DNA of 64,000 nt from Candidatus Staskawiczbacteria bacterium (GTDB lineage Bacteria; Patescibacteriota; Minisyncoccia; Minisyncoccales; Staskawiczbacteraceae). The stretch spans positions 1,002 through 65,001 of the forward strand of contig CAILLM010000003.1 in assembly GCA_903835075.1 (NCBI GenBank), given 5' to 3'. Of the stretch, positions 3,620 through 61,330 are shown piece by piece. The notes under the pieces were generated by a model. That model did no database searches. It was not told the origin of the DNA and worked only from the letters and a program-made list of their open reading frames with translations. Position 1 is the stretch's first letter. The number at the start of each line of letters is the position of its first letter. The translations under genes and the position numbers were made by a program.

Positions 3620-4978
3620 CTACTGGAATTTCAAAAACACATGAACCGCACTTTGATTATTTGGAGCGGAAGAAACCCAGAATGGCCAAAACTTTATTTG
3701 AGTTTTAGAAACTTGGTCCCCCATGTTATTAGTTATTGTTTGTTTTATTTGTTCAGCATTCTCACCCATTAAAGACAACCCAATAGCATTTTTATCAATA
3801 TTTTGATAGGCGCCTAATGAAATATTTAAATTTAAAGTTGCCTTACCCCCGGAAATATCAATAACATTAGAAGAATAATCTACTTTTGTACTACCATCTA
3901 ATAAAGTTTTACCTGTTGGCATTTGTGATGCAATATAACTTTTCACAAAAGTATCAACATCTGATTTTTTGAAAGCCAATGCGCTTGCCTGCACTGTCAC
4001 GCTGTAATTAAAAGTATCAGCTATTGCTCCTGATTTTGATTTTGTTGAAGAATCAGTTACATTAGATAAAATTGCATTATCTAACAAAATATAATCTGCA
4101 GAAATTTGACCTTTTACATCTGCTGTAGCATCTGCTGTTGCTTTTTGAGTTAAAACATTTTTAGCTTCTTGCAAATCATCATCTGTAACTTTTTTAACTT
4201 TTCCAGTATAACCACCTGTCATAGCTTCGGCTGATGATGCAGAAACACTAAAATAAGAAGCAGTTCCTTTTAATCCTGGCACTGAAAAATTAGAAGGAGC
4301 AATGTTATAATCAGTTCCTCCTTCTACGGCTTGTATTTGGACACTAACCGAACCAGGCGTAATTTTACTTCCAACTTTTTTTGCCGCCGGAATTGTAATT
4401 TTTTGTAAAGCAATAAATAATTTTCCAGAATCAGACATAAAGTGAGTGCCTGCTACAAAATTAAAAGCTTTTGGCGGATCATATTTATTATATACTGTTA
4501 TGGTTCCCTGAGATTTTCCCTCATTTGACCCATTACCCGTTGACGGAAAATCTTGCGTAGCTGTTTTAATAGATTGGAAATATTGTGCAGGAATAACTGC
4601 CTTAGCGGTGTCAACAACTGTAATAGACTTGTCAGCAGTTAAGGTTTGTTGCAGACTTAATGTGTCTACTTTTGGCCAAATTGTAATATCAGCTTTTGGT
4701 AATTTAAAAAATAAATATATGGCAACAAATAATACAATTATTAAAATACTAATAAAAATTGGCTTTTTAGCAGACTTTCCTTCTTTTTTTGTTTTAGTTT
4801 GAACGGGCGTTTGTGGTTGAGCTGGTGCGTAATATTGAGTTACAATATTTTTTGACTCTTTTTCAATAGTCAAAGGCACTTTAGTTTTTTTCACTACAGG
4901 CTTTTTTACAACCGGTTTTCTTTCAACCTTTTTGATTGCTATTTTGGGAGGTTTAATATCGTATATTTTTTTTGCCAT
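3620..4978 (-). CDS. Membrane-anchored hypothetical protein (Lys-rich N-terminus, one TM, large extracytoplasmic domain)
   Basis: 452 aa; TM at IFISILIIVLFVAIYLFF. Segment VQIQAVEGGTDYNIAPSNFSVPGL weakly recalls baseplate J/gp47-like families (low confidence). Confidence 0.6.
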   Translation of the reverse strand: MAKKIYDIKPPKIAIKKVERKPVVKKPVVKKTKVPLTIEKESKNIVTQYYAPAQPQTPVQTKTKKEGKSAKKPIFISILIIVLFVAIYLFFKLPKADITIWPKVDTLSLQQTLTADKSITVVDTAKAVIPAQYFQSIKTATQDFPSTGNGSNEGKSQGTITVYNKYDPPKAFNFVAGTHFMSDSGKLFIALQKITIPAAKKVGSKITPGSVSVQIQAVEGGTDYNIAPSNFSVPGLKGTASYFSVSASSAEAMTGGYTGKVKKVTDDDLQEAKNVLTQKATADATADVKGQISADYILLDNAILSNVTDSSTKSKSGAIADTFNYSVTVQASALAFKKSDVDTFVKSYIASQMPTGKTLLDGSTKVDYSSNVIDISGGKATLNLNISLGAYQNIDKNAIGLSLMGENAEQIKQTITNNMGDQVSKTQIKFWPFWVSSAPNNQSAVHVFLKFQ

Positions 4979-5031
4979 AATGAAAATTTTAATTTAAAAT
5001 TTTTTAGCGTAGCGATATATTTTTTTGTTCT

Positions 5032-5181
5032 AAGGCGAGGTAACAAACTTATAGCGAGACAGTTAATTTTTAGCGTATTTCAGGACACGAAGTGCCTGAC
5101 GAAGCCATTTAGACGCGAAACGTATCAATGGCGGTAGCAGAAAATTAATTGCCGAGCGATAAAAACGCTTGTTGCCGAGCG
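5032..5181. repeat. Composite GC-rich palindromic element, nested copy (A-type core)
   Basis: GGCGAGG.. / AGCGAGAC left boundaries, two GCCGAGCGA right boundaries; core hairpin TCAGGACAC-GAA-GTGCCTGA. Near-identical to the copies at 12827 and 56959. Confidence 0.85.
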
Positions 5182-5187
5182 AAAAAA

Positions 5188-7062
5188 TTATTCGAGCACT
5201 GCTTTAATTCTTCGGACTCCCGAAGAAGAGCTTTCTTCTTTTTGTATTTTAAATTTCCCCAAAACTCCTGTATGTTCTACGTGAGGCCCACCACAAATTT
5301 CTCTGCTGGCAATTTCATGATCATTACCAACAGTATAAACTTTTACGATTTGGCCATATTTAGATTCAAAAACTCCCATTGCATTTAACTCTTTAGCTTT
5401 TTCTATTGGCATTTCCTCACATACAACAGGCATATCTTTTTCTATTATACCATTTACAAAAATTTCTACATCATTTATTTGTGCACTGGTCATTTTTTCA
5501 GGATAAGTAAAATCAAACCTCAATCTTTCAGCTGTAATATTGCTTCCTTTTTGAAATATAGTATCCCCCAAAACTTTTCTTAAACCTGCCAACATTAAGT
5601 GGGCTGCTGTGTGTAATTTTGTAGTTTGTTCTGAATGATCAGCTAATCCACCCTTAAACATTCCCGCAGAAGCGGTTCTTGAAAGATCTTGGTGCTTTCC
5701 TAATTCTTTTTCGAATTCCTCAACATCAACTTCAATTCCTTTTTCTTTTGCCAACTCTTTTGTTATTTCGATTGGAAAGCCATAGGACTGATAAAGATTA
5801 AATGCATCTTTTCCGGATATATTTTGCAGCTTCTCAAATTCCTTTAATCCGTTTTGCATTGTTAAATTAAATTTTTCCTCTTCTTTGATGAGTTCCGCTA
5901 TAATCTGCTTTTCTTTCTCTTTTAAATAGGGATAAGAATTCGCATAAACTAGGATATATTCTTTAGCAATATCACTACAAAATTCCTTATTAATTCCTAG
6001 ATTATACGCAAATCTAATGGCCCTTCTAACCAATCTCCTGGTAAAATATCCTTGATCTTTATTTGAAGGAAATGCTCCGTCAGCGATCAAAAAGGTTGCG
6101 GCCCTTAAATGATCCATTATAATCCTAAAAGCTTTTGTTTCTTTACTGTCCTGACCATAAATTTTCCCAGATAAATTTTCAATTTTAGATTTTATAGCTT
6201 CAAAAATATCTATTAAAAAAATGTCTGGAATATTTAATTTAGCAGTTGCAATTCTTTCTAGGCCTCCTCCAAAATCGATATTTTTATTTTTTAATTTCTC
6301 AAATCCTTTTTCTGTTTTTATGTATTCCATAAAAACATTATTTCCAATTTCCAAAAATCTTCCGCAATCACAATTTACGTGGCAAGGAGAATCTTTAAAT
6401 TCAGAATTCTCATGTATTTCTAAATCAACTCCGAAATCCCAGAACATTTCCGAATCAGGACCACCTGGCTCACCCACTGGCATATTTTCAGTAATTCCGG
6501 CGCGCGACCACCAATTTTTAGTTTCATCATAATAAAAAATCCTACCTCCCTGCATCCCATTTTTTTCTGAAAAATCTACCACTTTAGCATTTATACCTAC
6601 CTTATCAAACTGCTCTATCCAAATTTGTGCCGCTTCTTCGTCAATTGGAATACCGACAGCTTCTTTGCCACGGAATACGGTGACATATATGTTTTCAGGA
6701 TTTAATTTTGCTTCTTTTGTAAGAAACTCAAACATCCATGCAATCTGTTCTTTTTTAAAATAATCTCCCAATGACCAATTCCCCAGCATTTCAAAAAATG
6801 TGGTATGCCTAGAATCTCCAACTTCTTCAATGTCTTGAGTTCTAAAGCACTTTTGAGAATCAGTAATACGCACGCCCGCTGGATGTTTTTCTCCCAATAA
6901 ATAAGGAATCATTGGTTGCATTCCTGCGCTAGTAAATAAAGTTGTTGGGTCATTTTCCGGAATCAAAGAAGCACTAGGAATTATTTTATGCCCTTTTCTC
7001 TCAAAAAACTTTAAATATTTTTCTCGTAATTCCGAGGATTGCATATTGTTATTATTCTTCAT
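5188..7062 (-). CDS. alaS: Alanine--tRNA ligase, short form lacking the C-Ala domain
   Basis: 624 aa; class II core (FTSAGMQP, FFEMLGNWS) and editing-domain motifs HTAAHLM and CGGPHV; ends just after the editing domain. Confidence 0.9.
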   Translation of the reverse strand: MKNNNNMQSSELREKYLKFFERKGHKIIPSASLIPENDPTTLFTSAGMQPMIPYLLGEKHPAGVRITDSQKCFRTQDIEEVGDSRHTTFFEMLGNWSLGDYFKKEQIAWMFEFLTKEAKLNPENIYVTVFRGKEAVGIPIDEEAAQIWIEQFDKVGINAKVVDFSEKNGMQGGRIFYYDETKNWWSRAGITENMPVGEPGGPDSEMFWDFGVDLEIHENSEFKDSPCHVNCDCGRFLEIGNNVFMEYIKTEKGFEKLKNKNIDFGGGLERIATAKLNIPDIFLIDIFEAIKSKIENLSGKIYGQDSKETKAFRIIMDHLRAATFLIADGAFPSNKDQGYFTRRLVRRAIRFAYNLGINKEFCSDIAKEYILVYANSYPYLKEKEKQIIAELIKEEEKFNLTMQNGLKEFEKLQNISGKDAFNLYQSYGFPIEITKELAKEKGIEVDVEEFEKELGKHQDLSRTASAGMFKGGLADHSEQTTKLHTAAHLMLAGLRKVLGDTIFQKGSNITAERLRFDFTYPEKMTSAQINDVEIFVNGIIEKDMPVVCEEMPIEKAKELNAMGVFESKYGQIVKVYTVGNDHEIASREICGGPHVEHTGVLGKFKIQKEESSSSGVRRIKAVLE

Positions 7063-12826: not shown

Positions 12827-12973
12827 AGCGAGGCAATTTTTTTAGCGAGGGAGTTAATTTTCAGCGTATTTCAGGACACGAAGTGCCTGACGAAGCCATT
12901 TAGACGCGAAGCGTATCAATGGCGTTAGCAGAAAATTAATTGCCGAGCGAGAAAAAAGTTTTTTGCCAAGCGA
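12827..12973. repeat. Composite GC-rich palindromic element, nested copy (A-type core), filling the rplO-secY spacer
   Basis: AGCGA-GGCAATTTTTTT-AGCGA-GGGAGTTAATTTTC ... GAAAATTAATTGCC-GAGCGA-...TTTTTTGCC-AAGCGA; ends 2 nt from the rplO stop. Confidence 0.9.
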
Positions 12974-21977: not shown

Positions 21978-22394
21978 CTAAATTTTTATCGTAATGTCAA
22001 CACCAGATGGCAAATTTAAATCTCTTAGTGATTCTATAATTTCTGCATTTGGATTTAAAATGTCAATAATTCTTTTATGAACTCTCATTTCAAATTGCTC
22101 TCTTGCATTTTTGTGTACAAAAGAAGATCTGTTCACGGTGTATTTAAGAATTTCTGTTGGAAGTGGTACTGGCCCTGAAACTTCAGCTCCAAATCTGTTG
22201 GCAATATCAATTATCTGCTTGGCAGAATTATCAATAATTTTATGATCATAAGCTTTCAATTTTATGCGAAGCTTAAGACCTGCTATTTCAACAGCCTTAG
22301 GATTTACTTTTGCCTCGTCTTTTCTTGCTTTTCCGCCCAAGGCGGATCCGCCTAGGGCGGACTTTTTTACGATGGTTTTTTTAGTAGCTGGCAT
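21978..22394 (-). CDS. rpsJ: 30S ribosomal protein S10 with about 40 aa N-terminal extension
   Basis: 138 aa; core LRIKLKAYDHKIID; the extension contains a repeat-derived ALGGSALGG. Confidence 0.9.
   Translation of the reverse strand: MPATKKTIVKKSALGGSALGGKARKDEAKVNPKAVEIAGLKLRIKLKAYDHKIIDNSAKQIIDIANRFGAEVSGPVPLPTEILKYTVNRSSFVHKNAREQFEMRVHKRIIDILNPNAEIIESLRDLNLPSGVDITIKI
22333..22362. repeat. Two tandem GC mini-hairpins inside the rpsJ 5' region
   Basis: CCGCC-CAA-GGCGG then TCCGCC-TAG-GGCGGA; translated in-frame as SALGGSALGG. Confidence 0.8.
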
Positions 22395-23592: not shown

Positions 23593-23716
23593 TTTTACTT
23601 TTTTTCTGTCGCCATAGACCTGGCAACAGATATTATTATTTTTTTATTATTTATTTTTTTAACGTATTATAATCTTATTATATTATTTTAAATAAGTCAA
23701 CACCCTTATGCAAACA

Positions 23717-23744: not shown

Positions 23745-23791
23745 TTATCTAACGCTGTTTGACAATCTCTAACCATAAACCAGCAATCGCC

Positions 23792-24058
23792 ATGAAAGAA
23801 TACCAAAGAATATCTGCACCGAACGAGAACGCGCTCAACGAGAAACTCGCCATAATGGTTAAGAATGGATGGCAACTATGCCCCGGATGCTATCAATCTG
23901 TCTCATTTAAGATCTACGAGCCATCGCAGGGTAAAAATGTAATAGCGCATTCTCTCTCCGTAATAATGGAGCGGGAAATCCCTGAAAAAAAGATTATCAA
24001 AGCGAAACAACCGACAAAAATTACTACAAAGCAAACCACGAAAGGAAAACGGAAATGA
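23792..24058 (+). CDS. DUF4177-like small protein with basic tail (copy 1)
   Basis: ATG at 23792 (track ORF starts at an upstream TTG). MKEYQRI...LNEKLAIMVKNGWQL...MEREIPE, then KQPTKITTKQTTKGKRK; the stop overlaps the next ATG (ATGA). Confidence 0.55.
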   Translation: MKEYQRISAPNENALNEKLAIMVKNGWQLCPGCYQSVSFKIYEPSQGKNVIAHSLSVIMEREIPEKKIIKAKQPTKITTKQTTKGKRK

Positions 24059-24207
24059 AACATTTTGAATGGGCAACCGATGAATGGGGCCAAACAATAT
24101 GCTTAGAACGGGAAATTCCTGAACCGCCATTAGCTCAACGAGCCGTCAAACCCAAACAACCGGCAAAAATTACTACAAAGAAAACTACGAAAAAAAGTCG
24201 GAAATGA
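24055..24207 (+). CDS. Small ORF, truncated paralog of the flanking DUF4177-like genes (copy 2)
   Basis: 50 aa, my translation: MKHFEWATDEWGQTICLEREIPEPPLAQRAVKPKQPAKITTKKTTKKSRK. Shares the start, the REIPE motif and the basic tail; ATGA overlaps on both sides. Confidence 0.45.
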   Translation: MKHFEWATDEWGQTICLEREIPEPPLAQRAVKPKQPAKITTKKTTKKSRK

Positions 24208-24428
24208 AACGATTCGAAAATGAATGGACGGGCGCGCAAGGTCTCAATGAATTACAGACTATGTGCGATAGGCTAGGGAAGGAAGGCTGGCAAGTTACGG
24301 CTGTATTTGTTAAGACCCTCGGCGAACATGAGTCCGAATGGGGTGCATGGCTCACACGGGAAATTACCGAACCAACGCCCGCTGAGTTACCTACCACTCC
24401 TCCGCCTGCTGGCTATACGGCTGGGTAA
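24204..24428 (+). CDS. DUF4177-like small protein (copy 3)
   Basis: 74 aa; LNELQTMCDRLGKEGWQVTAVF...AWLTREITE fits the DUF4177 pattern; Pro-rich tail. Confidence 0.55.
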   Translation: MKRFENEWTGAQGLNELQTMCDRLGKEGWQVTAVFVKTLGEHESEWGAWLTREITEPTPAELPTTPPPAGYTAG

Positions 24429-24445
24429 GATTTTCAAGTCGCAAT

Positions 24446-24488
24446 GCGCCAAAATTCTGAAATTTCAGAACGAGGCGCTCTTTTTTTT
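24446..24488 (+). terminator. Rho-independent terminator after the small-gene triplet
   Basis: GCGCC...GGCGC stem enclosing TTCTGAAATTTCAGAA, followed by a T-run (8 consecutive T). Confidence 0.6.
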
Positions 24489-24562
24489 ACTTCAAAAAAA
24501 ACACAATCAACTACATAAAAAATTCCAAAATCTCAAATCTCAAAACTGAAAAACTCTTAAAT

Positions 24563-24590
24563 AACTTTTTTGCCACGTGGCAAAAAAGTT
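24563..24590. promoter_or_regulatory. Perfect 28-bp palindrome flanking PaaX-like gene 1 (downstream copy)
   Basis: AACTTTTTTGCCACGTGGCAAAAAAGTT; identical to the copy at 25165-25192. Confidence 0.85.
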
Positions 24591-24591
24591 T

Positions 24592-25131
24592 TCATTTTAT
24601 ACCAAATTTAAATTTAATGCCATCTTGTCCATCTATGTAATCCAATAAACCAAACCTAATATATTTTTTAATTTTAAAAAACTCCACCAAGGACTCAATC
24701 TCATTTTTACACTCATAAGGATATAAAAATATGCTTTCTTGCATTTCATAGAATCCCCCAGTTTTAAGCCTATATACTAGTGCTTTTCTACCCTTTTCGC
24801 ATTCTCTGGGTATATCGAAGGCGACCATTCTCCATTTACCGTCCCATTTCTCTCTTTTATAATTAAGCCGCCTAAATTTATAATTTATTGCCCGTAGAAT
24901 TCCTTTTTCAGTTAAGGAAACCAAAACCAACCCTTCATAATTTTTCTTTTTTTCAATTAATTTTTCTTTCTCCAGGTCGTTCACAGCCGAAGTCAACTGC
25001 TTTCCAGTATAAGAATGAATATCTTTCAACACCAGATTTATAATAAAAAATCTGGCATCACCATGCGCACCCATCTTTTCTCTGCTTAGATAATAAATAT
25101 TCCACAATATCTCCTCCAAAATTTCTCTCAT
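24592..25131 (-). CDS. PaaX-like / Cas2-fold winged-helix regulator (family common in CPR)
   Basis: 179 aa; WDGKWRMVAFDIPRECEKGRKALVYRLKTGGFYEMQESIFLYPY matches the PaaX-type C-terminal pattern; paralog at 48605-49132. Confidence 0.6.
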   Translation of the reverse strand: MREILEEILWNIYYLSREKMGAHGDARFFIINLVLKDIHSYTGKQLTSAVNDLEKEKLIEKKKNYEGLVLVSLTEKGILRAINYKFRRLNYKREKWDGKWRMVAFDIPRECEKGRKALVYRLKTGGFYEMQESIFLYPYECKNEIESLVEFFKIKKYIRFGLLDYIDGQDGIKFKFGIK

Positions 25132-25164
25132 AAATTTATTATATTATTTTCATTTCTCAAATAC

Positions 25165-25192
25165 AACTTTTTTGCCACGTGGCAAAAAAGTT
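25165..25192. promoter_or_regulatory. Perfect 28-bp palindrome flanking PaaX-like gene 1 (upstream copy, candidate operator)
   Basis: AACTTTTTTGCCACGTGGCAAAAAAGTT, 34 nt upstream of the start codon at 25131. Confidence 0.85.
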
Positions 25193-25226
25193 ACTGCAAT
25201 CATATAATATATAATATCTATGTATT

Positions 25227-25264
25227 AAAAAACTCCGCGTGATATTCAAAGATGCGGAGTTTTT
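25227..25264 (-). terminator. Rho-independent terminator after fusA
   Basis: ACTCCGC ... GCGGAGT stem flanked by A and T runs, 13 nt after the fusA stop. Confidence 0.7.
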
Positions 25265-27352: not shown

Positions 27353-27397
27353 ATAATACTTAATTTATAATTTTTAATTTAAAATTTCTGATTTACT

Positions 27398-27510
27398 AGC
27401 GAGGCAGTGAATTCGAAGCGTACCCTGCAGGCCCGCCCAGGGCGGGCCGAAGCCTGAGTGAGTTGCGCGCTGGCGCAACGAACGCTAGCGGAGAATTCAC
27501 TGCCGAGCGA
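27398..27510. repeat. Composite GC-rich palindromic element (B-type core) in the rpsG-fusA spacer
   Basis: AGCGA-GGCAGTGAATTC...GAATTCACTGCC-GAGCGA; internal hairpins GGCCCGCC-CAG-GGCGGGCC and TTGCGC-GCTG-GCGCAA; ends 2 nt from the rpsG stop. Confidence 0.9.
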
Positions 27511-47450: not shown

Positions 47451-47603
47451 AGCGAGGAAAATGGGTTTTGTGGCGCGTTTCAGGACACAAAGTGCCTGAC
47501 CGAGCGAGTTAGTTTTGCGTAGGGTCGCGAGGAATTAATACGAAGTATAATTCCCCGACCTAGCAAAAATCACGAGCGTCGCAACAAAATCATTTTCCGA
47601 GCG
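47451..47603. repeat. Composite GC-rich palindromic element, divergent copy; its right arm overlaps the 3' end of the ComEC-like CDS
   Basis: AGCGA-GGAAAATGGGTTTTGT ... ACAAAATCATTTTCC-GAGCG; contains TCAGGACAC-AAA-GTGCCTGA and GGAATTA..TAATTCC hairpins. Confidence 0.8.
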
Positions 47604-48567: not shown

Positions 48568-48602
48568 CTTACAAATATCCAAACGTTTCCAAAAAAGTAA
48601 GA
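48568..48602. promoter_or_regulatory. 35-bp repeat with palindromic core flanking PaaX-like gene 2 (downstream copy)
   Basis: CTTACAAATATCCAAACGTTTCCAAAAAAGTAAGA; about 29 of 35 positions match the copy at 49168-49202. Confidence 0.75.
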
Positions 48603-48604
48603 TT

Positions 48605-49132
48605 TTAGACTTTCTCAATTAAAAATATTTTGACATACTTTTCTAAAGAATGTGCTTGAAGCAAAGTTTCTGTTTTTTCTGAAACATCATACGGAGTTAT
48701 CCAAACGCTCTGCTGGAATAATTTATATCCCAAATTATGCAAGATACTTCTAAGCAAATCTCTGTCATTTCTGCGGTTTCTGGGTATATCAAAAATCATC
48801 ATTATCCACTTTCCATCTTTTCTTTTCTCAGCTTCTCCTAGCTTAAAACTAGCCATTATCGCCTTTTCGATTCCATCTTTTGTTAAAATTATTGCTTTTT
48901 TATTTTCTAAATTTTTTACTTTTATGTAACCCTTTCTTTTAAGATAATAGATAAAATTTCCAAATTGCTTCTCACTTTTTTCTTTCCGATACTTTTTATA
49001 TATAGGATTTTTTGGGCCTGGCAAAAAATTGTTCATCGTTATTGGTTGAGCTGAATAACGAACAACCTCTCCCGCTAAATATATAAATTTATAAACATCC
49101 CAAAGAAATTTATCGGTAATTGGAATTTTCAT
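48605..49132 (-). CDS. PaaX-like / Cas2-fold winged-helix regulator, second paralog
   Basis: 175 aa; KDGKWIMMIFDIPRNRRNDRDLLRSILHNLGYKLFQQSVWITPY. Confidence 0.6.
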   Translation of the reverse strand: MKIPITDKFLWDVYKFIYLAGEVVRYSAQPITMNNFLPGPKNPIYKKYRKEKSEKQFGNFIYYLKRKGYIKVKNLENKKAIILTKDGIEKAIMASFKLGEAEKRKDGKWIMMIFDIPRNRRNDRDLLRSILHNLGYKLFQQSVWITPYDVSEKTETLLQAHSLEKYVKIFLIEKV

Positions 49133-49167
49133 ATTATTTATTATCTACTCATTAATTATACTATTCT

Positions 49168-49202
49168 CTTACAAAATACCAAACGTTTGTTAAAAAGTAA
49201 GA
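49168..49202. promoter_or_regulatory. 35-bp repeat with palindromic core flanking PaaX-like gene 2 (upstream copy, candidate operator)
   Basis: CTTACAAAATACCAAACGTTTGTTAAAAAGTAAGA; core CAAACGTTTG with outer arms CTTAC/GTAAG; 36 nt upstream of the start. Confidence 0.75.
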
Positions 49203-52127: not shown

Positions 52128-52138
52128 AAATTAAATGT

Positions 52139-52250
52139 AGCGAGGCAGTGAATTCAAAGCGTACCCTGCAGGCCCGCCCTGGGCGGGCCGAAGCCTGAGT
52201 GAGTTGCGCGCTGGCGCAACGAACGCTAGCGGAGAATTTACTGCCGAGCG
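52139..52250. repeat. Composite GC-rich palindromic element (B-type core)
   Basis: Near-identical to 27398-27510 (AGCGA-GGCAGTGAATTC ... GAATTTACTGCC-GAGCG); ends 6 nt from the upstream stop. Confidence 0.9.
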
Positions 52251-55238: not shown

Positions 55239-55425
55239 TAAGTTCTTTTAAAATTTTATCTAAATCCAACCCATAGGCCTTACAAATTTCTCCAACTTGC
55301 AAGTCATCCATTTCAAACTCGGCCATTGGGCAAGACAAGCACGGCACCCCATTTTTTGCTAAAATTTTATCGGCACCTTTTTGTTTAATTATTTTTGCTA
55401 AAGTAGTAGTTTTTGTTATTTTCAT
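55225..55425 (-). CDS. DUF1858-type redox-disulfide small protein
   Basis: 66 aa; GVPCLSCPMA...TLGEICKAYGLD-like pattern. Confidence 0.6.
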   Translation of the reverse strand: MKITKTTTLAKIIKQKGADKILAKNGVPCLSCPMAEFEMDDLQVGEICKAYGLDLDKILKELNVPK

Positions 55426-55431
55426 AAAATT

Positions 55432-55561
55432 AGCGAGGCAGTGAATTCGTAGCGTGCCCTGCAGGCAATTTTGCTTGGTCCGCCGATAGGCGGAAAATTG
55501 CCGAAGCCTGAGTGAGCCCGCGCTGGCGGGCGAACGCTAGCGAAGAATTCTCTGCCAAGCG
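55432..55561. repeat. Composite GC-rich palindromic element (B-type scaffold with substituted hairpins)
   Basis: AGCGA-GGCAGTGAATTC ... GAATTCTCTGCC-AAGCG; hairpins GGCAATTTT..TCCGCC-GATA-GGCGGA..AAAATTGCC and CCCGC-GCTG-GCGGG. Confidence 0.9.
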
Positions 55562-56958: not shown

Positions 56959-57100
56959 AGCAAGGCAATTTTTTTTAGCGAGGGAGTTAATTTTCAGCGT
57001 ATTTCAGTACACGAAGTGACTGACGAAGCCATTTAGACGCGAAGCGTATCAATGGCGTTAGCAGAAAATTAATTGCCGAACGAAAAAATTTTATTACCGA
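56959..57100. repeat. Composite GC-rich palindromic element, nested copy (A-type core)
   Basis: AGCAA-GGCAATTTTTTTT-AGCGA-GGGAGTTAATTTTC ... GAAAATTAATTGCC-GAACGA...; near-identical to 12827-12973. Confidence 0.9.
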
Positions 57101-57106
57101 TTATTA

Positions 57107-59428: not shown

Positions 59429-59523
59429 TGAGGCAATAAATTTTTTGAAGCGAGGCAGTGAATTCGAAGCGTACCCTGCAGGCCCGCCCTGGGCGGGCCG
59501 AAGCCTGAGTGAGCCCGCGCTGG
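59429..59523. repeat. Composite GC-rich palindromic element, right half missing
   Basis: ..GAGGCAATAAATTTTTTGA-AGCGA-GGCAGTGAATTCGAAGCG...GAGTGAGCCCGCGCTGGA, ending 2 nt from the iscS stop codon. Confidence 0.85.
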
Positions 59524-61212: not shown

Positions 61213-61237
61213 ATTATTATTTTTGTATTATTATCCT

Positions 61238-61264
61238 CATAACCGACTAAATTAGTCGGTTATG
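61238..61264. promoter_or_regulatory. Perfect 13-1-13 palindrome, candidate Rrf2/IscR operator
   Basis: CATAACCGACTAA-A-TTAGTCGGTTATG, 26-52 nt upstream of the Rrf2 start codon. Confidence 0.55.
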
Positions 61265-61273
61265 ATTAATATA

Positions 61274-61303
61274 ACAAAATAAATACGCCCCGTCAAGGGC
61301 GTA
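61274..61303 (-). terminator. Rho-independent terminator after the NUDIX gene
   Basis: TACGCCC-CGTCAA-GGGCGTA with a T-rich tract on the minus strand. Confidence 0.6.
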
Positions 61304-61330
61304 CTTATGATAATAAATGTACCAAAAACT

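Follow-up and report, generated by a model that had tools for sequence, protein, structure and literature searches.

A gene between fusA and tuf enclosed by two identical palindromes

The stretch of DNA analyzed here, 64,000 nucleotides of contig CAILLM010000003.1 from a Candidatus Staskawiczbacteria bacterium (hereafter the window), carries in its str operon a gene for a 179-aa protein that combines a winged helix-turn-helix (wHTH) with a Cas2-like domain. This gene and the palindrome that flanks it on both sides, AACTTTTTTGCCACGTGGCAAAAAAGTT, are the subject of the present report. An earlier note, made from the sequence alone, had described two identical and perfect 28-bp palindromes 602 bp apart around the gene, and the description held: AACTTTTTTGCCACGTGGCAAAAAAGTT occurs exactly twice in the window, with a start-to-start distance of 602 bp, and the pair encloses a single open reading frame (ORF). 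No third match was found in the window with up to three mismatches allowed, a search for which 100 shuffles gave an expectation of 0. The downstream copy lies 1 nt from the TGA stop codon (24592-24594), and the upstream copy begins 34 nt before the ATG (Table 1).

Inspection of the gene order reveals rpsL-rpsG-fusA, the 179-aa gene, three small ORFs on the plus strand and then tuf-rpsJ, with the fusA terminator standing between fusA and the upstream palindrome. The three small ORFs have a GC content of 45% compared with 36% for the window. Gene order and composition thus agree with the earlier placement of the gene in a break of the str operon beside foreign-looking DNA. No Rfam match was obtained at the palindrome-gene unit, and the whole window has a single tRNA as its only such match.

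A paralog with the same wHTH and Cas2-like architecture is present at a second site in the window, where its neighbors are a ComEC-like gene and a gene of the short-chain dehydrogenase/reductase family. The two proteins are 33% identical over 106 aa, and a profile search of all six frames found no third family member in the window. The paralog had been thought to be bracketed in the same way by a different palindrome with a spacing of 600 bp. The separate repeat and the spacing were confirmed, but the copies, each of 35 nt and 600 bp apart, are imperfect direct rather than inverted repeats of each other and are only partly palindromic, with outer CTTAC/GTAAG and central AAACGTTT.

Table 1. Positions of the bracketed genes, their repeats and adjoining signals in the window
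Feature	Position	Strand	Remarks
wHTH-Cas2 gene, 179 aa	24592..25131	-	Pfam PF20803, AlphaFold model, Foldseek
Upstream palindrome copy, AACTTTTTTGCCACGTGGCAAAAAAGTT	25165..25192	.	abuts/overlaps -35 region of gene promoter; putative operator
Downstream palindrome copy, AACTTTTTTGCCACGTGGCAAAAAAGTT	24563..24590	.	transcribed; predicted 12-bp-stem hairpin at mRNA 3' end
-10 box TATAAT	25138..25143	-	6 nt before ATG
-35-like hexamer TTGTAT	25161..25166	-	17 nt 5' of -10 box; overlaps last 2 nt of palindrome; inferred
Paralog gene, 175 aa, same wHTH + Cas2-like architecture	48605..49132	-	PF20803, 71.5 bits
Downstream copy of paralog repeat, CTTACAAATATCCAAACGTTTCCAAAAAAGTAAGA	48568..48602	.	2 nt past stop
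Upstream copy of paralog repeat, CTTACAAAATACCAAACGTTTGTTAAAAAGTAAGA	49168..49202	.	7 nt from TATAAT box at 49155-49160
fusA intrinsic terminator: A-run, CTCCGC...GCGGAG stem, T-run	25227..25264	-	read from sequence
Three small overlapping ORFs, 99/50/74 aa, DUF4177-like, common motif 'EREIPE'	23759..24428	+	convergent with gene

Domain structure and distribution of the protein family

Comparison with Pfam gave PF20803 (PaaX_M, Cas2-like) as the sole domain of both window proteins, with a score of 60.1 bits for the 179-aa protein against a cut-off of 24 and a higher score for the paralog (Table 1). A PaaX-C-like part had been ascribed to the protein earlier, which was not borne out, as the assignment is a winged helix followed by PF20803. 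No PaaX_C match was obtained for the 179-aa protein at E ≤ 1, and the Cas2-like fold is the last element of the structural model. Against the PaaX equivalog model TIGR02277, whose cut-off is 264.55 bits, the two proteins scored 26.5 and 31.9 bits. Cas2 models likewise stayed below their thresholds, PF09827 matching only the paralog (15.1 bits; cut-off 23.8) and TIGR01573 scoring 16.4 and 20.9 bits (cut-off 24.5).

The AlphaFold model of the 179-aa protein (pLDDT 84) comprises a winged helix at residues 1-90, with the modeled recognition helix at 43-55 and the wing at 59-73, and a Cas2-like ferredoxin fold at residues 100-175. Among solved structures the top Foldseek match was Escherichia coli PaaX (8A39, E = 7e-4), followed by winged helices of the MarR and TubR types and several Cas2 proteins.

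An alignment of 75 representatives that are only ∼25-45% identical revealed four invariant residues, G77, D106, R115 and S133, and a near-invariant set consisting of W96, D97, W100, F105, P108, Q131 (at least 90% of the 75) and P138. Neither His nor Tyr is found among the conserved columns. D106, R115 and S133 correspond to the signature of Cas2, namely an Asp at the end of beta-1, an Arg in alpha-1 and the QxS(V/I)F strand, and the family profile motif 'ViFDIPe..R..lr..L...Gf..lQkSVf' aligns to the bona fide Cas2 proteins 3EXC, 6JHZ and 8IA4. In the part of the solved PaaX-like protein Rv0674 that could be aligned, neither the Asp nor a QxS motif is present. Because the signature is kept in the family and missing from Rv0674, 'wHTH-Cas2' is a more accurate name than 'PaaX-like'.

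At E ≤ 1e-10 the family comprises 2,897 clusters at 50% identity. Its named members belong to Candidatus Staskawiczbacteria and other Parcubacteria, Moranbacteria, Amesbacteria, Doudnabacteria and similar groups, and the proteins carry the database labels 'hypothetical' or 'PaaX regulator'. No relatives were found on viral contigs, and a phage or viral origin was rejected on that ground. Membership of a defense system was also rejected, as PADLOC gave weak Cas2 matches only.

Recurrence of the bracketing repeats across the family

Homologs of the 179-aa gene were collected at 79 loci from species-representative genomes, at which 75 genes could be assessed. For each gene, the 150 nt upstream were compared with the 150 nt downstream for a common repeat. 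A flank repeat scoring at least 18 was present in 73% of the 75 family genes, and one scoring at least 14 in 83%. By contrast, just 1.3% of 472 control ORFs from the same DNA reached 18 (Mann-Whitney p = 6e-33), and those controls whose matches were palindromic turned out to be family genes or ORFs antisense to them. The pairing of each of the two window paralogs with its own flanking repeat, as first noted, is therefore a general property of the family.

The repeats are palindromes or quasi-palindromes of 25-50 bp and vary between loci, as exemplified by TAACTTTTTTGTCTCGAGACAAAAAAGTTA, TAGCGTTTTTTGCGGCCGCAAAAAACGCTA, TCCGTGAAAATCACGCTATAGCGTGATTTTCACGGA and CCCACAGATTTCATGATCATGAAATCTGTGG. 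At asymmetric sites the direct match between the two copies is far better than the inverted match, which identifies the bracketing copies as direct repeats; at one locus, L011, the 3-nt center is flipped between copies. The centers lie 602-794 bp apart (median 660), a range that simply follows gene length. An ACGT center, earlier proposed as a shared feature, proved not to be one, since other members have CTCGAG, GTAC, GGCC, GATC, TATA, AATT and other centers.

Promoter position of the upstream copy

The upstream palindrome adjoins a promoter-like sequence. A TATAAT-like box was found between -8 and +25 nt from the end of the upstream palindrome in 39 of 47 loci, compared with 20% at random positions and 36% after downstream copies, and the median gap between the palindrome end and the hexamer was 10 nt. 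In the window, the -35-like hexamer (Table 1) has 3 of 6 consensus bases and is absent from the listing of an automated promoter scan. The arrangement of TATAAT, 6 nt and ATG recurs in L002, L009 and L010, with a TATAAA variant in L004. A distance of only 6 nt between TATAAT and ATG suggests that the mRNA of the 179-aa gene is leaderless or nearly so.

The predicted location of the upstream copy, on the -35 element or spacer of the promoter of the gene, fits the position of an operator. The earlier suggestion that the protein binds operators at both ends of its gene is thus favored for the upstream copy by the 39 of 47 loci set against the random rate.

RNA pairing of the downstream copy

The start of the downstream copy can precede the end of the stop codon by up to 6 nt or follow it by up to ∼30 nt, and the TAG is often part of the copy. 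Their departures from perfect symmetry are strongly biased. Read in the sense orientation, mismatches were of the G·T/T·G kind in 16 loci and of the A·C/C·A kind in 2; counted singly, 20 were of the wobble type, which gives G·U in the sense RNA, and 2 were not (binomial p = 1e-4). Upstream copies showed no such bias, with 5 G·T-type and 11 A·C-type loci, and the difference between the two positions was significant in Fisher tests by loci (p = 0.001) and by mismatches (p = 1e-4). The excess of wobble-compatible mismatches, 20 to 2, indicates at the level of sequence that selection acts on the downstream copy, and not on the upstream one, to preserve a hairpin in the sense RNA. For the window, a 70-nt stretch of the 3' end with the hairpin has a predicted folding energy of -16.9 kcal/mol.

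On both strands, a T-run lies 5' and an A-run 3' of the GC core. These runs consequently extend the stem and do not provide a U-tail. At least 5 T residues in the 9 nt after the downstream copy were seen in 14 of 44 cases. An automated scan marked the copy at 24563-24590 as terminator-like on the plus strand and did not flag it in the direction of the gene, and in L002 and L005 a separate canonical terminator lies past the palindrome. A classical bidirectional (Rho-independent) terminator was rejected on the grounds of polarity and lack of U-tracts.

Palindrome copies away from family genes

The exact 20-mer core TTTTTGCCACGTGGCAAAAA was found in 112 metagenome stretches, compared with a chance expectation of ∼1 (a rough estimate). 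Some 26 of these adjoin a family gene and, where sequence suffices, show the usual pair ∼600 bp apart. On the remaining ∼85 a family gene is absent, and this holds even for contigs as long as 13-14 kb. The palindromes, described earlier as private to each gene, are private within the window but not elsewhere.

Solo copies are mostly intergenic and lie beside unrelated genes. Sixty-one are placed after a stop codon (18 of them within 5-30 nt) and 31 before a start codon, and convergent gaps hold more of them than divergent gaps (∼11 and ∼3, as counted from the list). The core is constant, whereas the outer arms are site-specific and symmetric, and the full palindrome averages 33 bp. Three mismatches in 23 distinct solo sites are too few for a wobble test. 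The T fraction after solo sites was 0.37 against a background of 0.31, no meaningful enrichment. In 0.66 Mb around family genes, palindromes of the T-run/core/A-run type numbered ∼50 flanking and ∼5 solo, and in a 0.51-Mb metagenome set other core types also occurred solo.

Wide occurrence at unrelated terminators had been named in the earlier note as grounds for taking the palindromes to be generic bidirectional terminators. Copies do occur at the ends of unrelated genes, mostly past stop codons, so that this ground applies in part, but the conserved core sequence, the absent U-tract enrichment and the presence of one copy on a promoter argue that they are not generic terminators.

Several loci carry further copies in unusual positions. 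L115 has a pair of copies that are identical over 49 nt and separated by 516 bp; between them lies an ORF of ∼109 aa that does not belong to the family, and a TATAAT box follows directly upon the upstream copy of this bracket. L011 has the layout site, family gene, site, promoter with an 83-aa ORF (GC 0.47 compared with 0.39), site. A third copy of the palindrome of the gene forms an in-frame insertion of ∼17 aa in the rnhB gene just downstream in L040, an insertion that is missing from four orthologous rnhB genes, and a third copy lies inside an LTD-like ORF in L034.

The rnhB genes (RNase HII) downstream of the family gene in L031, L040 and L041 (∼4550-5450 in each locus) have in-frame insertions at the same three positions, among them two copies of a ∼27-aa repeat in L031, the family palindrome in L040 and another A-run/T-run palindrome, CCCCAAAAATTGACGACCGTCAATTTTTGGGG, in L041. 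Such insertions resemble the in-frame palindromic elements of Rickettsia. A conserved ORF of ∼930 aa holds the core ATTTTTGCCACGTGGCAAAAA(A/T) in frame, encoding '...FLPRGKK...', in nine metagenome contigs (L091, L116, L120, L131, L142, L143, L161, L167 and L186); in a tenth contig, L101, the ∼930-aa gene starts just past the site. In L019, the solo palindrome ACGTTTTTTGCCACGTGGCAAAAAACGT (6559-6586) follows an ORF of 144 aa that is 53% GC and appears to encode a secreted protein. Its core differs from that of the family gene at the same locus and matches the downstream site of the paralog at L030, in the same genome.

Symmetry of the palindromes and constancy of their cores

The conserved symmetric core of the palindromes spans 20-22 bp. 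The core TTTTT(T/G)GCCACGTGGCAAAAAAGT is common to the syntenic orthologs in the window, L001 and L002, and paralogs within one genome mostly have different cores. In 14 loci with the GCCACGTGGC core, bases outside the central 22 bp mostly agree within a locus and differ between loci, so the two copies at a locus evolve in concert. At L006, L013, L022, L030, L050, L060 and L062, the upstream and downstream copies differ yet each is a perfect or near-perfect palindrome. Three processes could account for the upkeep of symmetry: selection for pairing, active re-copying of the palindromes, or correction of quasipalindromes through template switching, a recognized mutational mechanism.

Presence and absence at the fusA-tuf locus

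The proteins of L001 and L002 are 78% and 74% identical to that of the window, and their genes occupy the same place, rpsL-rpsG-fusA-[gene]-...-tuf-rpsJ. In five of the eight genomes compared, the fusA-tuf gap has neither a family gene nor a T-run palindrome, although the EF-Tu proteins of these five are 91-97% identical to that of the window. Two of the gene-less gaps measure 101 and 141 nt and one 530 nt; two, including that of the closest relative (97% EF-Tu), contain only convergent, small, GC-richer ORFs. Alignment of the window with this closest relative, L192, stops at the fusA terminator (25261) and resumes at 23779 towards tuf. As no part of the intervening stretch aligns, 23780-25260 constitutes a hypervariable island. 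Placement is stable elsewhere, with rnhB directly after the gene in at least six loci of another subfamily.

The idea of a self-contained cassette, raised earlier for the gene and its palindromes, receives some support from this comparison, since the gene and both palindromes are missing together in five relatives and the same palindrome pair encloses small non-family genes in L115 and L011.

The fusA-tuf gap of the genomes named below is as a whole such an island, and the small ORFs that fill it differ between genomes. They overlap, are GC-richer and DUF4177-like, and have a 'GW' motif, '...EREIPEP...' and basic C termini (KRK/RSKP). Examples are found at 23759-24428 in the window, 4843-5643 in L001, 5225-5569 in L002, 3131-4623 in L192, 3274-4767 in L196, and in L094 and L112. 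Those of L001, L002, L192 and L196 are analogous to the ORFs of the window but cannot be aligned with them. Where a family gene is present the gap ORFs are convergent to it, and one such ORF lies 121 nt from a solo palindrome.

Other repeats and palindromes of the window

An imperfect hairpin, CTGTCGCCA-TAGACC-TGGCAACAG, lies directly 5' of the tuf start codon both in the window (23606-23632) and in L192 (4962-4987). This GCCA...TGGC hairpin was considered as a degenerate third copy of the palindrome and set aside, a similar hairpin being present before tuf in L192; it is probably a leader element of tuf outside the palindrome system. A near-perfect 30-bp palindrome, TCCGCCCAAGGCGGATCCGCCTAGGGCGGA, lies within an N-terminal extension of rpsJ (22332-22361) and encodes SALGGSALGG. 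The region 61220-61308 holds two adjacent strong palindromes, TCATAACCGACTAAATTAGTCGGTTATGA (61237-61265) and ATAAATACGCCCCGTCAAGGGCGTACTTAT (61279-61308), without the T-run/core/A-run architecture.

A dispersed, GC-rich (52-59%) intergenic element of ∼110-135 nt with the conserved ends AGCGAGGCAGTGAATTC...GAATTCACTGCCGAGCG occurs at 27397-27509, 52138-52250, 55425-55561 and 59442-59523, with a predicted three-stem fold of -59 to -64 kcal/mol. A sister set that is AT-richer and has the same ends is located at 5049-5182, 12840-12973 and 56973-57106, with a partial copy at 47467-47512. One copy lies between rpsG and fusA, and no Rfam match was obtained for the element at the gathering score.

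Interpretation of the palindrome-gene unit

Any account of the unit starts from what is established, namely its anatomy, its recurrence across the family, the promoter position of one copy, the RNA-level selection on the other, the solo copies and the presence or absence of the gene at orthologous loci. The reading that we put forward, tentatively and with somewhat less than even confidence, is that of an autoregulated, palindrome-binding wHTH-Cas2 protein paired with palindromes that resemble repetitive extragenic palindromic (REP) elements. The unit would then exemplify a module that recurs throughout the Candidate Phyla Radiation (CPR) and consists of a minimal PaaX-like protein and a long palindrome. 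The protein, which has no ligand domain and a Cas2-fold domain that keeps the signature residues, would most likely bind its palindrome as a dimer. Occupancy of the upstream copy should shut the promoter of the gene, on whose -35 or spacer that copy lies, and would amount to negative autoregulation. The downstream copy is predicted to be transcribed as a stable hairpin at the mRNA 3' end and is probably a second DNA site, and the two copies together would set the gene apart as a transcription unit of its own. Since the same core recurs behind unrelated genes in related genomes, and at least one related palindrome has been copied into a coding sequence, the palindromes behave like REP elements. 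The protein would be their dedicated partner, in the place of a REP-associated tyrosine transposase (RAYT), and bound or folded palindromes behind other genes might mark transcript ends or serve as roadblocks.

Several observations weigh against this reading. A transcription factor would not usually have sites where genes end. No simple code linking recognition helix 43-55 to the palindrome core was visible: helices with KQLTS accompany either GCCACGTGGC or GTCTCGAGAC, and those with KQLST either GGCTCGAGCC or CACGTGGCGTG. L027 and L030, which are paralogs of one genome, have an identical inner 22 bp, so the specificity of pairing is not strictly private. Copies that differ within a locus while each remains symmetric point to selection or correction for self-complementarity and not for a sequence read by the protein. 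Finally, the window contains no solo copy, so that any genome-wide role in this organism is hypothetical.

A reading closer to RAYTs would make the wHTH-Cas2 protein a nuclease that acts on the palindrome in hairpin or cruciform form, by cutting or processing it, and thereby spreads copies to further places. The flanking copies would be the ends of the element and the solo copies its non-autonomous progeny. The architecture is that of RAYTs, a ∼500-bp gene with its own REP type and divergent pairs in one genome (PMC3337134). The same reading would account for the palindromes inserted in the rnhB gene of L040 and in an LTD-like ORF, for solo copies that are almost all perfect (3 mismatches in 23 sites), for the concerted evolution of the two copies within a locus and for the retention of D106, R115 and S133 in all 75 representatives when Rv0674 is without the Asp and QxS. 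These invariant residues could, however, be structural, and Pfam gives PaaX_M alone, with no HUH/Tyr transposase domain. The copy number is low near family genes, with no copies elsewhere in the window, and mobilization does not need the upstream copy to lie on a promoter. Nuclease activity of Cas2 is dispensable even in CRISPR adaptation, which also counts against this proposal, and we consider it unlikely. A more far-reaching version, in which wHTH-Cas2 proteins would be active enzymes that create, copy or recombine their cognate palindromes and form a second, HUH-independent 'REPtron' class on the Cas2 fold, is less likely again. In its strongest form the system would insert foreign DNA between duplicated palindromes, a possibility suggested by the GC-richer segments of ∼0.3-0.55 kb that are bounded by the same palindrome beside the gene in L011, L115 and L062. 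The repeat-handling half of CRISPR adaptation would then have a free-living relative in this system.

Mobility could also reside in the site. If the palindrome were an att-type site, as in integrons or in integrative mobile elements exploiting Xer (IMEX), one-gene circles would integrate at a solo palindrome and yield site-gene-site units and arrays of them, with the protein in an accessory or regulatory role. The island at 23780-25260 that fails to align with the closest relative, the absence of gene and palindromes from five of eight fusA-tuf gaps (two of them, of 101 and 141 nt, simply empty), the pair around a small non-family ORF in L115, the site-gene-site-ORF-site order of L011 and the neighboring segments that are GC-richer than the genome would all follow. 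The gene-less gaps, however, lack the solo palindrome that an empty site would require, and crossover predicts hybrid, asymmetric arms, whereas each copy is symmetric even where the two differ. No recombinase was seen beside the units, some syntenic placements are old and stable (fusA-tuf in three genomes, rnhB downstream in at least six loci), and neither near-identical paralogs within one genome nor relatives on viral contigs were found. Integration of this kind is accordingly judged very improbable. Similarly small is the chance that the hairpins act independently of the protein, as terminators or mRNA-stabilizing stem-loops whose link to the gene is incidental or serves to insulate a dosage-sensitive gene. 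The preference of solo copies for convergent gaps and for positions 5-30 nt past stop codons, the RNA-level selection on downstream copies, the terminator-like reading of 24563-24590 on the plus strand and the 14 of 44 downstream copies with at least 5 T in 9 nt are in keeping with such a role. Yet the T-run and A-run extend the stem and leave no U-tail, T after solo sites is at 0.37 against 0.31, and terminators need no conserved 20-nt core common to more than 100 loci. Nor would simple hairpins explain an upstream copy that lies on a promoter and has no sense-RNA wobble signature, or an association as specific to the family as 73% against 1.3%, in a genome with ordinary terminators such as that of fusA (25227-25264).

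Comparison with known systems

Like the family, E. coli PaaX (8A39; PaaX_N/PaaX_M/PaaX_C) has a winged helix followed by a Cas2-like domain and presumably binds symmetric DNA as a dimer. PaaX, however, has ∼310 aa and a C-terminal ligand domain, compared with ∼180 aa and no PaaX_C in the family. PaaX is the phenylacetate repressor, whereas no paa genes lie near either family gene of the window: the first has rpsL, rpsG, fusA, tuf and rpsJ as neighbors, and the paralog the ComEC-like gene and the dehydrogenase/reductase gene. Unlike PaaX, the family gene is flanked on both sides by its site, and the protein keeps the Asp/Arg/QxS signature of Cas2. With Cas2 itself the family has in common a ferredoxin-like fold and the signature 'hFDIP...R...L...GF..lQkSVF', although profile matches are weak, and also a tie to direct repeats of ∼28-40 bp that are partly or fully palindromic. 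It differs in the fusion to a wHTH and in the number of repeats, of which there are only two, placed ∼600-800 bp apart on either side of the gene. The 64-kb window was found to contain no array of regularly spaced repeats of the CRISPR kind, each repeat having two copies ∼600 bp apart.

A RAYT gene is short and has its own type of REP on either side, and one genome can hold several highly divergent pairs of this kind (PMC3337134). In the REP/RAYT system (PMC3337134, PMC3116915, PMC3733652, PMC3479197), as in the family, a gene of ∼0.5 kb is flanked by its own type of palindrome. Both systems pair protein lineages with palindrome types and have several divergent pairs per genome, L027/L030 being one exception, and in both the palindromes are extragenic, lie mainly at the 3' ends of genes and are transcribed as hairpins. 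The family protein is nonetheless no HUH/Y1 transposase, one flanking copy lies on the promoter and the apparent copy number is low; the palindromes, unlike REPs, are near-perfect, with a conserved center and variable but symmetric outer arms. We know of no mobilizing activity of the wHTH-Cas2 family.

Repressors of the MarR type likewise have a symmetric site of ∼20 bp over the -35/-10 of their own promoter, and the lac O1/O2/O3 and lambda OL/OR systems have a second site some hundreds of bp away, so that looping is conceivable here too. What sets the family apart from lac, lambda and MarR is that in thousands of members the second site has its constant place at the stop codon and is selected at the RNA level as a hairpin, and that additional copies are found where unrelated genes end and not in promoters. 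Integron cassettes with attC sites are similarly small, single-gene units, often bearing a promoter, that are bounded by imperfect palindromes in variable regions, and attC, like the family palindromes, is conserved more in structure than in sequence. However, attC has conserved ends (R and L boxes) and a variable center, whereas the family palindromes have a conserved center and variable ends. The two sites of a family unit are also alike, and no integrase was seen, though none was searched for by profile.

Searches of the literature returned no paper combining PaaX with 'Cas2-like' and, among the matches listed, none in which a CPR or Patescibacteria term occurred together with PaaX or with REP elements. 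The wHTH-Cas2/palindrome module was not found described, although autoregulated wHTH repressors and REP palindromes are already known kinds. To our knowledge, almost nothing is known of the regulation or punctuation of transcription in CPR bacteria. The present family is very large within the CPR, and for each gene the flanking sequences on both sides directly show the probable DNA target. Family genes should not be annotated as phenylacetate regulators. If the proposed binding is true, the family would supply thousands of natural and compact (∼180 aa) protein-palindrome pairs with varied cores, and it would represent a REP-like palindrome system with a partner protein unrelated to RAYTs. It would also constitute a Cas2 homolog, with its signature intact, tied to palindromic repeats outside CRISPR, which would bear on the origin of the link between Cas2 and repeats.

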